A stretch of 64,000 nucleotides of DNA from NCBI RefSeq assembly GCF_045037415.1, contig NZ_CP173438.1. The stretch is one strand, 5' to 3'. Origin of the DNA: Escherichia coli. Lineage in GTDB: Bacteria > Pseudomonadota > Gammaproteobacteria > Enterobacterales > Enterobacteriaceae. The notes beneath the pieces were generated by a model. The model was not told the DNA's origin and ran no database searches. It saw only the letters and a list, made by a program, of their open reading frames with translations. Each line of letters starts with the position of its first letter. The first letter of the stretch is position 1. This document shows positions 22,037 to 63,675 of the stretch, piece by piece. The position numbers and the translations under genes are program-made.

Positions 22037-23203
22037 TCAAACTGATGGACGTAAACGAACGCGTAACCAGCTATATCCAATTACCGCCGAAGAAATTGAA
22101 CCGACAAGGATACCTAATTTTGCCCAGTTAATCAGTTCTGGATCTACGCTACCAAATGCCAGGCTGGCAATAAAGATAGACATAGTAAAACCGATACCGC
22201 ACAGGATACCAACCGCCATAATTTGCTGGTAAGTCGTTCCCTCTGGCAGATGTGCCAGTTTCAAACGCAGCGCCAACCAGCAGAACAGACTAATACCCAG
22301 TGGCTTGCCAATCAGCAAACCAGCGATGATCCCTAATGGCAGAATGGAGGTCAAACCTTCCAGCGTGACACCTTGCAGTGAAACGCCAGCATTAGCAAAT
22401 GCAAACAGCGGCAAAATCAGATACGCCACCCATGGATGCAAAACATGCTCCAGACGTTTAGCCGGAGAGCGCCCATGCTTCTCTTTTAACGGAATAAAGA
22501 AGCCGACAATGACGCCAGCCAGCGTTGCATGGACACCTGATTTCAACACCGCTGTCCACAGCACCACGCCAACCAGAATATAAACGCCCGTGCGGCGTAC
22601 ACCACACAGATTCAATACCGCGAGTACCGCAATTGCTACAGCCGCGACGCCAAGAGAGGCCATCGATAAGTCATTAGTGTAGAACAATGCGATGATAATG
22701 ATGGCCCCAAGATCGTCGATAATAGCCAGAGCCATCAAAAAGATCTTCAGCGCTAACGGAACACGACTTCCCAACAGCGCCAACACACCAAGTGCAAAGG
22801 CAATGTCAGTCGCCGCCGGGATTGCCCAGCCTTCGCGAGTGATAGGATCGGCATAGTTAAAAGCCAGATAGAGCAATGCCGGGACAATCATCCCGCCGAT
22901 TGCGGCAATAACAGGAAATGCCGCCTGGCGCAGACTGGCCAGCGAACCTTGCATCAGCTCGCGTTTAACTTCCAGACCAACCAACAGGAAAAATACCGCC
23001 ATCAGAGCGTCATTGATCCATAGCAGCATGTTCTTGTTGATCTCAAGTGTCCCAACCCGGAGCTGAACCGGCGTCTCAAGAAAGTCGTGATACCATCCAC
23101 TGGTTGCACCGCTGTTGGCCATAATCATCGCTAATACAGCGGCAATAATGAGAATAATGCCTCCCGAGGCATCACTGCTAAAGAATCGATGCAGATGTTT
23201 CAC
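22037..23203 (-). CDS. nhaA: Na+/H+ antiporter NhaA, 388 aa
   Basis: [42 protein letters not shown]... full length. Confidence 0.96.
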
Positions 23204-23437
23204 TTTTTATTTCTCTTCAGGTGAATAGATCGTTTTCACGATTTTACCCCGCACGAATCATCGTTAAAATCAGATTATAGTGTAGGAATAGCTCGCTTTT
23301 TACGATCTATTAAAAGAATTGCGCCATCAGCGAGAGATGAGTTTTTGATGCCCGAAAGCGGCGGCTGATGACCTTAAACCCCATTAATCATAGTCTAATG
23401 TCAAGATTTCTGAAGAAATTATTCGGAAAAGTAATAA

Positions 23438-38110: not shown

Positions 38111-38129
38111 TTGAGATAATGAATAGATG

Positions 38130-39416
38130 TTACTGATGATTCATCATCAATTTACGCAACGCAGCAAAATCGGCGGGCAGGTTATGCGAAAGCAAGGGTA
38201 AATCAGCACGTTCTGCCAGCTCTTTTGGCAGATCCAACGTTTCACCGAGAATCGCTTCCACGCTCTCTTTAAATTTTGCCGGATGCGCGGTGCCGAGGAA
38301 CAAGCCATATTCGCCTGGATTCAACTGGTCACGCAGCGCACGATAAGCTACGGCAGCGTGCGGCTCCGAGGTATAGCCCAGTTCTTTTAACTCACGCATT
38401 GTCTGTTGCGTGGTTTCATCATCCACGGCTGCATACCCCAGCTCTTTCAGTTGCCAGATTTTGCGGCGGAACAACTCTTCCACACGCGGCCAGTTGTTTG
38501 GCTGGCTAACATCCATCGCATTGGATAACGTCGCCTGAGTCGCTTTGGGTGACCACTGACCGCCGTGCAGGAAACGTGGCACGGTATCATTCACGTTGGT
38601 CGCAGCAATAAAACGCTTCACCGGCAGGCCAAGAGATTTCGCCAGCAGGCCCGCTGTCAAATCGCCGAAGTTACCGCTCGGCACCGAGACAACCAGCTGG
38701 TTGCGCGCTTCCTGCGGCAACTGCGCCACGGCTTCAAAGTAGTAGCAAATCTGCGCCAGCAAACGGCTGATGTTAATGGAGTTAGCAGAGTTTAGCCCCA
38801 GCGCCACTTTCAGCTCTTCATCATCAAACGCCTGCTTCACCAGCGCCTGACAGGCATCGAAATCGCCGTCGATGGCAACAGTTTCGATATTGCCGCCCAA
38901 TGTACAGAACAGTTTTTCTTGCAGTGGACTGATTTTGCCTCGTGGATAGAGGATAACCACTTTCACATTCGGTAAACCGTAGAAAGCATGAGCCACTGCC
39001 GCTCCAGTATCACCGGATGTCGCGGTCAGAATGGTCACTGGCTTATCGCCCGCAATATGGGTCAGCATTTGTGCCATAAAGCGACCGCCGAAATCTTTAA
39101 ATGCCAGCGTTGGCCCGTGGAACAATTCCAGACAACCGACATCGCTTTCAACATTGGCGACCGGAGCCGGGAAGGCAAACGCCGCACGTACGCGCTCTTC
39201 CAGGATTTCCTGCGGGATTTCATCACCAATAAACGCCGAGAGGATCTTCGCACTGCGGGTGACAAAATCCAGCTTCAGCATCTCATCAATTTCAGTCAGG
39301 CTGAATTCCGGCAGGTCGTGCGGAAAAAACAGCCCCTGATTTTTGCCTAACCCCTGGGTTACGGCTTGCGCAAAGCTGACCTGCTCATTGTGATCTTTCA
39401 GATTGTAGAGTTTCAT
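38130..39416 (-). CDS. thrC: Threonine synthase, 428 aa
   Basis: MKLYNLKDHNEQVSFAQAVTQGLGKNQGLFFPHDLPEF... Confidence 0.97.
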   Translation of the reverse strand: MKLYNLKDHNEQVSFAQAVTQGLGKNQGLFFPHDLPEFSLTEIDEMLKLDFVTRSAKILSAFIGDEIPQEILEERVRAAFAFPAPVANVESDVGCLELFHGPTLAFKDFGGRFMAQMLTHIAGDKPVTILTATSGDTGAAVAHAFYGLPNVKVVILYPRGKISPLQEKLFCTLGGNIETVAIDGDFDACQALVKQAFDDEELKVALGLNSANSINISRLLAQICYYFEAVAQLPQEARNQLVVSVPSGNFGDLTAGLLAKSLGLPVKRFIAATNVNDTVPRFLHGGQWSPKATQATLSNAMDVSQPNNWPRVEELFRRKIWQLKELGYAAVDDETTQQTMRELKELGYTSEPHAAVAYRALRDQLNPGEYGLFLGTAHPAKFKESVEAILGETLDLPKELAERADLPLLSHNLPADFAALRKLMMNHQ

Positions 39417-60440: not shown

Positions 60441-61457
60441 ATGTCCACATTACGCCTGCTCATCTCTGACTCTTACGACCCGTGGTTTAACCTGGCGGTA
60501 GAGGAGTGTATTTTTCGCCAGATGCCCGCCACGCAGCGCGTTCTGTTTCTCTGGCGCAATGCCGACACGGTAGTGATTGGTCGTGCGCAGAACCCGTGGA
60601 AAGAGTGTAATACCCGGCGGATGGAAGAAGATAACGTCCGCCTGGCGCGGCGCAGTAGCGGTGGCGGCGCGGTGTTCCACGATCTCGGCAATACCTGTTT
60701 TACCTTTATGGCTGGCAAGCCGGAGTACGATAAAACTATCTCCACGTCGATTGTGCTCAATGCGCTGAACGCGCTTGGCGTCAGCGCCGAAGCTTCCGGG
60801 CGTAACGATCTGGTGGTGAAAACCGCCGAAGGCGACCGCAAAGTCTCAGGCTCGGCCTATCGCGAAACCAAAGATCGTGGCTTCCACCACGGCACTTTGC
60901 TGCTCAATGCCGACCTTAGCCGCCTGGCAAACTATCTCAATCCGGATAAAAAGAAACTGGCGGCGAAAGGCATTACCTCAGTGCGTTCCCGCGTGACCAA
61001 TCTGACCGAATTGCTACCGGGGATCACCCATGAGCAGGTTTGCGAGGCCATAACCGAGGCCTTTTTCGCCCATTATGGCGAGCGCGTGGAAGCGGAAATC
61101 ATCTCCCCGGACAAAACGCCAGACTTGCCAAACTTCGCCGAAACCTTTGCCCGCCAGAGTAGCTGGGAATGGAACTTCGGTCAGGCTCCGGCATTCTCGC
61201 ATCTGCTGGATGAACGCTTTACCTGGGGCGGCGTGGAACTGCATTTCGACGTTGAAAAAGGCCATATCACCCGCGCCCAGGTGTTTACCGACAGTCTCAA
61301 CCCCGCGCCGCTGGAAGCCCTCGCCGGGCGACTGCAAGGCTGTCTGTACCGCGCGGATATGCTGCAACAGGAGTGCGAAGCGCTGCTGGTTGACTTCCAG
61401 GAACAGGAAAAAGAGCTACGGGAGTTGTCGGCATGGATGGCAGGGGCGGTGCGGTAG
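60441..61457 (+). CDS. lplA: Lipoate-protein ligase A, 338 aa
   Basis: [57 protein letters not shown]... Confidence 0.95.
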
Positions 61458-62789
61458 TTACCCACCCATGCGGGTAACTTTCTCTTCGATTTGCCGGATT
61501 TTTTCCGGCATTTCTTGCGCAATGTGGCGAAACGCCTCGCTGATACGCGGATCTCTGGCGACCGTTTGCCAGAACTGCTGCGCCAGCGGGATCGCCGTTA
61601 ACCATGCGCTTTTACTGATGTTAAGATCAAACTTCACCTCAATGGCAGCATCACGCAGCATTCCGGCGCTGTTTGGCGCATAGGCCATCGGCAGCATGTC
61701 GTAGACGGGTGTCAGCGCAAATGGTGGTTCAGATAAATAAAATGATAAATTGCCTGCGTGCATATCGCTGTTGGCGATAAGTCGCCCAAACGCCCAGATC
61801 ACTTCTGTTTGCGCCACGCTCTGGTGAGTGACAAGTTGTTGCTCACACAAATGCCGCATTGCCTCCGGCCACGATCCCGGAGAAGAGATAAACTCACTTT
61901 GCACCGCCTCCAGCGACACAATGGGCAAGCGACCATCGTTACCTTTGCAGTCAAAGCGTTCCGCTTCCAGGAATACCTGCCTGTTACTTGTTACAAGCAC
62001 CGTTGACTCGATGGCGTGGATCCCGCCGTCACGCAGGATTTGCGCGGCAATAGATTCAGCAATTAGCAGGTCCCCCCAACGTTGGCTGACTGCGGTTTGC
62101 TGTGGCACGGTGAATTTCACCAACACATGTTTATTGCCTGACGGCGTTTGTGCATAGCAGGTAAATTTTGGCTGCTCGCCGCCCGCAGAAGAACCCACAA
62201 TTTCTCCAGCCAGAGCATCGCTTGCCAACTGTTCGTAACGGGTGAGTTTTTGATCCAAAGGAATTTCCGCAGGGCGTTGTGCAGTAATCCATCGCTGATA
62301 ATTCCCCTCCCCGACCAACCAACCGCCAGTATATTCACCGTTAAATACGGTCAGGGCGTAGAGCACATCTTCTTCCTGCCAGAGACGTATATCATCAGTC
62401 AGATTCAGTTGCGCGGCTAACTTTCTGCCCCACGCGCGCCCTAAAAAGCCCTGCGGTCGGAGATCGGTCAAATACCAGGGCAAACCATCAAACCACTGTT
62501 CGTCGCCATCTGCGCCTGTTACCAGACAACTTCCCTGTGGCCAGCACAACCGGATGTCGGCGAATTTATGCGCCTTTCCGGCATCGTCCACCCGCCAGAC
62601 GGGAATACGCTCAATTCCGCGATAAGGACGCAGCAGTACATATCGCGTTGCCCGTGCTTTACCAAAGCGAATCACCCGATTTTCTCTGGCAACAAGGCGT
62701 GAGAACGTCGCCTGACTGATTGCCAGACGCTGGCGCAATTCCGGGGCAGAACGCGGCCCTTGCAGTAAAAGATCGGTCAGTTCGCTCAT
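61458..62789 (-). CDS. yjjJ: HipA-family Ser/Thr kinase with N-terminal helix-turn-helix (orphan HipA-like toxin homologue), 443 aa
   Basis: N-terminal HTH (ELRQRLAISQATFSRLV) fused to a HipA-like kinase domain; same size and position as K-12 yjjJ. Confidence 0.85.
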   Translation of the reverse strand: MSELTDLLLQGPRSAPELRQRLAISQATFSRLVARENRVIRFGKARATRYVLLRPYRGIERIPVWRVDDAGKAHKFADIRLCWPQGSCLVTGADGDEQWFDGLPWYLTDLRPQGFLGRAWGRKLAAQLNLTDDIRLWQEEDVLYALTVFNGEYTGGWLVGEGNYQRWITAQRPAEIPLDQKLTRYEQLASDALAGEIVGSSAGGEQPKFTCYAQTPSGNKHVLVKFTVPQQTAVSQRWGDLLIAESIAAQILRDGGIHAIESTVLVTSNRQVFLEAERFDCKGNDGRLPIVSLEAVQSEFISSPGSWPEAMRHLCEQQLVTHQSVAQTEVIWAFGRLIANSDMHAGNLSFYLSEPPFALTPVYDMLPMAYAPNSAGMLRDAAIEVKFDLNISKSAWLTAIPLAQQFWQTVARDPRISEAFRHIAQEMPEKIRQIEEKVTRMGG

Positions 62790-62792
62790 TAA

Positions 62793-62825
62793 TGAATAGA
62801 TTCGTGAATAGATACTTGAATAGAT
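62793..62825. repeat. Three perfect direct repeats of TGAATAGAT at 12-bp spacing, immediately 5' of the yjjJ start codon
   Basis: tgaatagat at 62793-62801, 62805-62813 and 62817-62825, read directly from the sequence. Confidence 0.85.
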
Positions 62826-62892
62826 TTATTAACATATTTCACTGAAAAGTATAGCGAAAATATTCAAGCTGGAGAGATAAATGAATAAATAC

Positions 62893-62932
62893 TAAAAAGC
62901 CGGAGCAGTCTCCCACTCCGGCTTCACACGAC
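62893..62932 (-). terminator. Putative intrinsic terminator downstream of deoD
   Basis: Minus strand: agccggag-tgggagactg-ctccggct followed by ttttagtattt. Confidence 0.55.
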
Positions 62933-62955
62933 AATCGCCTTTCAGCAAAACACAA

Positions 62956-63675
62956 TTACTCTTTATCGCCCAGCAGAACGGATTCCAGCGCGATTTTGAT
63001 CATGTCGTTGAAGGTGGTCTGACGCTCAGCGGCAGTGGTCTGCTCGTGAGTGCGGATGTGGTCAGACACGGTGCAGATGGTCAGGGCTTTCGCGCCAAAT
63101 TCTGCAGCGACGCCGTAGATACCCGCCGCTTCCATTTCCACGCCGAGGATGCCGTATTTTTCCATCACGTCGAACATTTCGCCGTCCGGAGAGTAGAACA
63201 GGTCAGCGGAGAACAGGTTACCAACGCGAGCATCAACGCCCAGTGCTTTTGCCGCGTCTACCGCGTTACGCACCATGTCGAAGTCAGCGATAGCGGCAAA
63301 GTCATGGTCTTTAAAACGGATGCGGTTAACTTTGGAATCGGTGCAGGCACCCATACCGATAACGACGTCGCGCAGTTTTACGTGCGGCAGAACAGCGCCA
63401 CAGGAACCCACGCGGATAATTTTCTTCACGCCGAAATCAGTGATCAGTTCTTTGGTGTAGATGGAGCAGGACGGGATACCCATACCGTGGCCCATTACGG
63501 AAATTTTGCGGCCTTTGTAAGTACCAGTGAAGCCCAGCATACCGCGAACGTTGTTCACTTCACGGGCATCTTCAAGGAAAGTTTCAGCAATATACTTCGC
63601 ACGCAGCGGGTCGCCTGGCATCAAAACTACGTCAGCAAAATCGCCCATTTCTGCATTAATGTGTGGAGTAGCCAT
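62956..63675 (-). CDS. deoD: Purine nucleoside phosphorylase DeoD-type, 239 aa
   Basis: [69 protein letters not shown]...; the ORF-track start at 63732 is an upstream extension. Confidence 0.96.

Follow-up and report, generated by a model that had tools for sequence, protein, structure and literature searches.

A phased repeat array upstream of the HipA-type kinase gene hipH (yjjJ) in Escherichia coli is a probable operator for its own product

The hipH (yjjJ) gene of Escherichia coli is preceded by an array of short repeated units that probably serves as a negative autoregulatory operator bound by HipH itself. In the 64-kb stretch of E. coli DNA analyzed here (the window), three units lie head to tail directly before the start codon and a fourth lies farther upstream, just past the terminator of deoD (Table 1). 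Based on comparison of hipH upstream regions across gamma- and beta-proteobacteria, the array is very probably a cis-regulatory DNA element specific to hipH. HipH is the least understood HipA-family toxin kinase of E. coli, and how it is restrained without an antitoxin gene is an open question in the literature. An operator of the type proposed here would make HipH a rare case of a toxin that uses its own DNA-binding domain to read direct repeats, not palindromes. No description of the operator, the repeats or hipH autoregulation was found in the literature searched, which excluded the first YjjJ study (Maeda 2017).

Table 1. Features of hipH and its upstream region, in window coordinates. R0 to R3 are the repeat units, read in the sense of hipH.
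Feature	Sequence	Coordinates	Strand	Remarks
hipH (yjjJ) CDS, 443 aa		61458..62789	-	N-terminal winged helix, then HipA-type kinase
Winged helix-turn-helix coding region, residues 1-55		62625..62789	-	AlphaFold2 model, pLDDT ~90-96
Putative 5' UTR, ~29 nt		62790..62818	-	Transcription start placed from the -10 position; almost wholly repeat units
R3	ATCTATTCA	62793..62801	-	Exact 9-mer; 3 nt from ATG; sits where a ribosome-binding site is expected
R2	ATCTATTCA	62805..62813	-	Exact 9-mer; most invariant unit across genera; inside Reg-Seq 'repressor' site +30..+45
R1	ATCTATTCA	62817..62825	-	Promoter-proximal; exact 9-mer; per-column conservation in 24-region alignment
-10-like element	TAATAAA (most genera: GCTATAAAT)	62825..62831	-	Conserved block; within Reg-Seq '-10' region; abuts/overlaps R1
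-35-like hexamer	TATACT (other genera: consensus CTTTAC)	62848..62853	-	Conserved block in 24-region alignment; within Reg-Seq '-35' region
R0 (distal)	ATTTATTCA	62882..62890	-	65 bp upstream of R1, directly past the deoD terminator
deoD intrinsic terminator		62896..62925	-	Terminator scan: 13-pair stem, then T run; upstream boundary of the hipH control region

Repeat array, promoter and leader

The original prediction described three phased 9-mers at 12-bp spacing beside the yjjJ ATG. On the plus strand these are exact copies of TGAATAGAT that begin at 62793, 62805 and 62817 with a period of 12 bp, so the description of the three units was correct, but a fourth copy, R0, had been overlooked. 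Read in the sense of hipH, the minus strand is ATCTATTCA-AGT-ATCTATTCA-CGA-ATCTATTCA-TTA-ATG. A unit consists of ATCTATTCA plus three variable bases, and the ATG (62789-62787) is separated from the nearest unit by three nucleotides, TTA. R0 has one mismatch in the window and is an exact ATCTATTCA in MG1655 and O157.

Tandem Repeats Finder ranks the array as the top-scoring tandem repeat of the 64-kb window (period 12, 2.8 copies, score 54). Its significance lies in the phasing, since the 9-mer alone is not unusual (17 matches at ≤1 mismatch versus 11.7 expected in the window). By our own estimate, the chance of three exact phased 9-mers per window is ~0.27^18 x 128,000, or roughly 1e-5. The window holds two more exact copies of TGAATAGAT, each alone and intergenic. 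One (23222-23230) is 19 nt upstream of the start of a minus-strand ORF (22037-23203), and the other (38120-38128) is just beyond the stop of ORF 38130-39416, beside a hairpin. These lone copies may have arisen by chance, with ~0.5-1 expected in the window.

No strong sigma-70 promoter was found in 62600-63100 by a simple consensus scan, which argues that the hipH promoter is weak. We located it by combining sequence conservation with published Reg-Seq data. Reg-Seq used a computational yjjJ transcription start site (TSS) at 4621716 and reported activator footprints '-35' at -18..-6 and '-10' at +9..+22 (PMC7567609). These two regions, TTTTCGCTATACT and GTTAATAAATCTAT in MG1655, are the two conserved hexamers; the hexamers lie between R0 and the array, and Reg-Seq maps RNA polymerase to the same place. 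The real TSS should therefore fall in or just after R1, and the computational TSS (MG1655 4621716, ~62842 in the window) is probably ~25 nt too far upstream. With the promoter placed in this way, the first base of R1 is shared with the -10-like hexamer, the putative TSS is inside R1, and the array spans the -10 edge, the likely TSS and the sequence up to the ATG. Both Reg-Seq and conservation put the -10 at 36-42 nt before the ATG, from which a leader of ~29 nt would follow. An RpoD holoenzyme site and H-NS have been placed in the deoD-yjjJ spacer by Genomic SELEX (Shimada et al.).

The observation that no good Shine-Dalgarno (SD) sequence precedes yjjJ holds up. The best anti-SD duplex in positions -21..-3 is +0.1 kcal/mol, versus -5.4 for deoD and -5.6 for lplA, and the hipH start is not SD-led. 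There is no room for an SD sequence because the array fills the leader, and the anti-SD energy averages +0.5 kcal/mol over the 44 loci whose last unit directly adjoins the start codon. No alternative in-frame start exists between the hipH ATG and a stop 13 codons upstream, and full-length HipH homologues all align from residue 1.

Two other explanations for the repeats were considered and rejected. An RNA structure or riboswitch does not account for them, as 199 of 200 shuffles fold at least as well as the leader (z-score +2.07), and Rfam 15 has no match. The sole Rfam hit is a spurious lncRNA (E 0.079) far below the gathering score. A 41-aa antisense ORF (62720-62845, plus strand) runs through the repeats, but the conservation follows the 9+3 bases and shows no codon pattern.

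Conservation and linkage to hipH

A HipH profile search yielded 80 loci, one genome per species, which together with the window gave 81 upstream regions. The homologues range from Escherichia albertii (94% identity) down to beta-proteobacteria (37-41%). We scanned these regions for self-similarity at periods of 5-24, using 400 random segments from the same loci and 405 shuffles as controls. The best period is 12 bp in 67 of the 81 hipH upstream regions, from both gamma- and beta-proteobacteria, versus 35 of the 400 control segments. It is 11 bp in four more, which are Chromobacterium and three Gallionella-like hipH loci. A 12-period score of ≥19/30 was reached by 56 of the 81 upstream regions, by none of the 400 segments and by one of the 405 shuffles.

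Nearly all Enterobacterales have two to four ATCTATTCA-like units, spaced at 12 bp and abutting the ATG, and a distal unit ~97-99 nt upstream of the start codon. Similar arrays occur upstream of hipH in beta-proteobacteria and other gamma-proteobacteria. Of 51 loci from Enterobacterales, most (43) carry three proximal units, and the other eight are divided equally between four-unit and two-unit arrays. In 39 of the 51 the start codon follows the last unit after 0-3 nt. Across these loci the three spacer positions of the 12-bp unit carry almost no information. The AT flanking the unit core, which was not used for unit selection, is conserved (130/153 and 135/153). R0 and R1 are 63-67 bp apart at 42 of 47 loci, with 29 showing a spacing of exactly 65 bp. 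When 24 upstream regions are aligned, the only conserved blocks are R0 (with an invariant TATTCA), the -35-like CTTTAC, the -10-like GCTATAAAT and R1-R3; the remainder is unalignable.

The hipH loci of Enterobacterales are syntenic, with deoD upstream. Every locus outside the order has different neighbours and the array is kept; therefore, the array is tied to hipH, not to deoD or lplA. Conservation across genomes had been proposed as a check on the original prediction, and the outcome favours it: the array is kept with hipH in 80 species, whatever the neighbours.

We also scanned metagenomes for two phased units. The matches are dominated by low-GC tandem-repeat DNA, and those listed do not decide whether HipH has a wider regulon; among the 120 listed, 27 are followed directly by hipH in the same orientation. 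In these loci a search for a second, separate winged-helix homologue was negative. Seven other metagenome contigs carry compact arrays of three or four units of the ATCTATTCA 12-mer, and the retrieved stretches contain neither hipH nor a winged-helix homologue; one of these (68% GC) also has a distal copy ~50 nt upstream. Such arrays may represent operators orphaned from hipH, targets regulated in trans, or places where a different protein binds.

Some lineages differ in layout. In seven loci from Rheinheimera, Alishewanella and Alkalimonas, the hipH unit is AT(C/T)GATGCA, phased at 12 bp, and the array lies 70-105 nt upstream of the start and upstream of the likely -10. Given this position, repression by TSS occlusion would not be universal. 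In five Pantoea loci the terminator of the upstream gene falls between R0 and the proximal array, and the array is set apart from the start by 10-18 nt of spacer containing SD-like runs of G; elsewhere the start is SD-less.

The HipH winged helix and its covariation with the repeat

HipH matches the NCBIfam YjjJ equivalog NF007297 over its full length (E 3.5e-202, 672 bits, cut-off 401) and Pfam HipA_C (E 6.9e-21). The best PDB fold matches of its AlphaFold2 model (pLDDT 92.9) are to HipA (E 6e-11), and HipA was found by fold search only, as a PDB sequence search with HipH returned no relative. The gene is monocistronic and lacks an adjacent antitoxin gene; the deoD terminator lies on one side of it and convergent lplA on the other. 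The equivalog match, HipA_C core, N-terminal helix-turn-helix (HTH) and lack of an antitoxin place HipH among the HipH/YjjJ kinases (Gerdes clade X). The stop codons of hipH and lplA abut at 61457/61458 with zero intergenic bases, and the pair is listed as a convergent 'excludon' (PMC12288877).

In the model, the winged helix comprises helices at residues 3-8, 15-22 and 26-35 and strands at 39-42 and 49-53. Helix 3 (QATFSRLVAR), preceded by S25, is the predicted recognition helix. A Foldseek search with the isolated domain (residues 1-58) placed HlyU, SqrR, SmtB and CzrA at the top (TM 0.7-0.8, rmsd 1.5-2.3 Å, ~30% identity). Pfam MarR_2, HTH_5 and HTH_20 match about half of 48 homologous domains (HTH_5 26/48, HTH_20 20/48). 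The HTH of HipH has been noted previously, with the suggestion that it binds DNA or is a cis-acting antitoxin (PMC8262856).

To relate the domain to the DNA, the recognition-helix segment was tabulated beside the repeat unit found de novo for each species (Table 2). The repeat sequence changes together with the HipH recognition helix, a lineage-level correlation that involves ~five lineage-level changes and is confounded by shared ancestry; on this basis HipH itself is the likely binder. Where Q26 is lost, in Pantoea sp. A4 and in an unrelated beta-proteobacterium, the unit is ATCGTTTCA. T28 and R31 are invariant across the HipH family, as is the T.CA part of the motif. If HipH reads the units, Q26P would favour ATCGTTTCA and the CDRSTVTR helix would favour ATCGATGCA.

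Table 2. Recognition-helix segments of HipH and the repeat units upstream of the corresponding genes.
Helix segment	Repeat unit	Lineage
xSQ(A/P)TxSR	(C/N)TATTCA	Most gamma- and beta-proteobacteria, to 37% overall identity
CDRSTxTR	AT(C/T)GATGCA	Rheinheimera, Alishewanella, Alkalimonas
ISPATLSR (Q26 to P)	ATCGTTTCA in all four units	Pantoea sp. A4; other Pantoea keep SQ + CTATTCA
VSRPTLAR (Q26 to R)	ATCG.T.CA	Unrelated beta-proteobacterium
I(N/T)QSTLSR	CTATGCA	Rahnella
LSQPTVTR	TA(T/A)RATTCA	Two Burkholderiales

Proposed autoregulation of hipH

We propose that the four units, R0-R3, are the hipH operator, with each 12-bp unit made up of nine conserved bp, ATCTATTCA, and three free bp. Each unit would be bound by one winged helix-turn-helix domain, in tandem monomers, and this domain is most likely the ArsR/MarR-like N-terminus of HipH. 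R1-R3 lead head to tail from the downstream edge of the -10, via the putative TSS, to the start codon, with R0 beyond the -35 at a fixed ~65 bp. Occupied units would keep RNA polymerase from open complex formation or promoter escape, and a loop to the distal R0 possibly reinforces the block. HipH, a kinase whose overproduction is toxic, would in this way be under negative autoregulation. The SD-less, operator-filled leader should keep HipH translation low too. The layout of the units, their conservation, their tie to hipH, the covariation of unit and helix, and the overlap with the RNA polymerase site mapped by experiment are shown by the comparisons above; we infer all four of the main elements: binding by HipH, its occurrence as tandem monomers, its repressive effect, and release by c-di-GMP (see below).

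Published data touch on this proposal in several ways. Reg-Seq reported a 'repressor' site at +30..+45 of yjjJ, without a named protein, where mutations raised expression; of nine growth conditions, heat shock alone gave the call, and the mutagenized stretch ended inside R3 (PMC7567609). In MG1655 this site reads TCTATTCACGAATCTA and takes in R2 and the first part of R3. The DNA is thus identical to part of our array, but the repeats were not noted, the binding protein was not named and a single condition was involved (Ireland et al. 2020, eLife). A hipH operator would explain this orphan site. Taking together conservation, helix covariation and the Reg-Seq result for units 2 and 3, the suggestion that the repeats are an operator for YjjJ's own HTH has strong comparative support, and binding is predicted.

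ChIP-exo of myc-tagged YjjJ in MG1655 found zero binding sites, and the HTH was not recognized by the authors (PMC8464067). We treat this as a weak negative because the promoter is weak, the leader is SD-less and autorepression is probable. Native HipH expression is probably very low, and the proposed operator would suggest why ChIP-exo failed.

Potentially connecting the operator to a signal, c-di-GMP binds HipH (KD 7.6 uM), and hipH mRNA rises in response to it only if the gene has its native promoter (Zhang et al., PMC11452175). The same study found that the HTH is needed for HipH toxicity and that HipH localises to the nucleoid. We tentatively suggest that c-di-GMP binding releases HipH from the operator and so induces hipH, which would explain induction solely through the native promoter. 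It is conceivable, at a similarly low level of confidence, that HipH is a one-component c-di-GMP-responsive autorepressor whose array sets its own transcription and translation. If true, c-di-GMP-responsive autorepression would give a defined DNA target to a genotoxic kinase known only as a toxin. A hipH operator would also offer a 9-bp motif, a fixed geometry and natural specificity variants paired with helix variants.

Alternative explanations

The units could be bound by a different trans-acting factor, such as MarA, H-NS or an uncharacterized regulator, and not by HipH. Reg-Seq assigned MarA to -24..+18 of the yjjJ promoter, Genomic SELEX put H-NS in the deoD-yjjJ spacer, YjjJ yielded no ChIP-exo sites (PMC8464067), and E. 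coli strains without hipH keep the array. However, the MarA site is the core promoter and not R2/R3, and the array follows hipH into unrelated neighbourhoods in both beta- and gamma-proteobacteria. Further, the unit sequence shifts with the HipH recognition helix, and a factor encoded elsewhere is not expected to covary with it. To our knowledge, H-NS has no 9+3 phased motif of this type. What we take to be the motifs of ArgR, OxyR, DnaA, CRP, Fur, IHF, NarL, RcsAB and DeoR/CytR do not fit the sequence together with the 12-bp direct phasing. We consider a different factor unlikely. If HipH is the binder, it could still act otherwise than by repression, either by activating transcription or by using the array as a DNA scaffold that tethers kinases for autophosphorylation or inactivity, a cis-acting 'DNA antitoxin'. 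HipH has no partner antitoxin gene, a cis-acting antitoxin role has been suggested for its N-terminal domain, and there are conserved serines near the Gly-rich loop of the kinase (PMC8262856). HipH is also found on the nucleoid (PMC11452175), and one clade has its array on the upstream side of the likely promoter. In most lineages, though, the units cover the interval from TSS to ATG, the classic position for repression, the sign of the Reg-Seq effect is repressor-like, and four sites per chromosome would hold very few molecules. This makes activation or scaffolding quite unlikely, and repression by HipH remains our preferred reading.

The original prediction offered translational control of a potentially toxic kinase as a second option, and the units might act mainly in the mRNA, as a region for SD-independent initiation or as a target through which S1, an sRNA or an RNA-binding protein would restrict synthesis of the kinase. 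The array does fill the putative 5' UTR where an SD is absent, and the leader is unusually unstructured, as SD-less initiation would want. Yet R0, of the same sequence and orientation, is upstream of the -35 and outside the hipH transcript; Pantoea has an SD-like spacer before the start; and the array of the Rheinheimera clade is 70-105 nt upstream. Nine contiguous conserved bases with three free bases are a typical pattern for a protein-DNA site. No Rfam family matches, and Reg-Seq reads RNA and not protein. Translational control as the main function is thus not supported and appears very unlikely, and low translation is a probable by-product of an operator that sits in the ribosome-binding region. 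A functionless tandem duplication, or a recombination scar, might be suspected at a locus that is polymorphic in E. coli and where the breakpoint between haplotypes with and without hipH is exactly at the ATG beside the array. This explanation is effectively refuted: the array is kept across proteins down to 37% identity where intergenic flanks are unalignable, and unit number, phase and distal spacing are all conserved.

Comparison with known systems

The operators of hipBA are four TATCC-N8-GGATA palindromes that are bound by HipB dimers, with HipA as co-repressor. Like hipBA, hipH encodes a HipA-family toxin kinase and has several sites that overlap the core promoter or TSS of the toxin gene, with R1 abutting the -10 and the units extending from the putative TSS to the ATG. 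In hipH, however, the sites are direct repeats of unrelated motif, and the winged helix (ArsR/MarR type) is fused to the kinase, whereas HipB is a separate Xre/Cro-type protein. There is no antitoxin gene beside hipH, and neither palindromes nor an upstream Xre-type antitoxin were found. HTH-mediated autoregulation is accepted logic for the HipA family (PMC8262856). The familiar theme is autoregulation of a toxin module; its implementation departs from hipBA in three respects, namely an ArsR-like winged helix fused to the kinase, 12-bp units set head to tail, and the constant 65-bp spacing of R0.

ArsR proteins, of about 100 aa, occur on their own as dimers, have flanking dimerisation helices and recognise operators with inverted repeats; their recognition helix has the signature S-Q-x-T/A-x-S, similar to that of HipH. 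HipH shares with the ArsR/SmtB repressors the winged-helix core, in which the third helix is the recognition helix, and its best fold matches (HlyU, SqrR, SmtB, CzrA) come from this group. In contrast to them, HipH has a 55-residue core that is fused to a kinase and lacks dimerisation helices, and its sites are head to tail. Direct-repeat arrays are known for other winged-helix proteins, including the OmpR/PhoB boxes at 10-11 bp and the 12-bp tubC repeats bound by TubR; the heptads of the omega repressor of the omega-epsilon-zeta toxin-antitoxin system are also listed as tandem direct-repeat sites. As in hipH, these are short units in the same orientation about one helical turn apart, in sets of two to four or more, which implies cooperative side-by-side binding. 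These proteins and their functions are unrelated to HipH, which differs in its 12-bp period (11 in four lineages) and in having R0 at ~65 bp.

E. coli haplotypes without hipH

Only 1347 of 5426 complete E. coli genomes have hipH; about 75% are without it, yet the array is kept. Homology between the two haplotypes stops exactly at the ATG, and the operator remains as an orphan. The deoD terminator, R0 and R1-R3 match between haplotypes and the 65-bp spacing is kept, but the R0-R1 interval (62826-62881 of the window, ~56 bp) is unrelated sequence in the hipH-less haplotype. This suggests that the hipH-less haplotype may descend from a divergent, possibly imported, hipH promoter. We looked for decay of the operator in hipH-less E. 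coli, a comparison without power because those haplotypes are 97-99% identical to one another; array retention in them is uninformative for the same reason.

In place of hipH, 4063 E. coli genomes have a gene for an 87-aa Xre-like HTH protein, on the opposite strand between deoD and lplA. This gene ends in a TGA stop codon that reads, on the other strand, as the final TCA of R3. In some strains the gene is a pseudogene with an internal stop.
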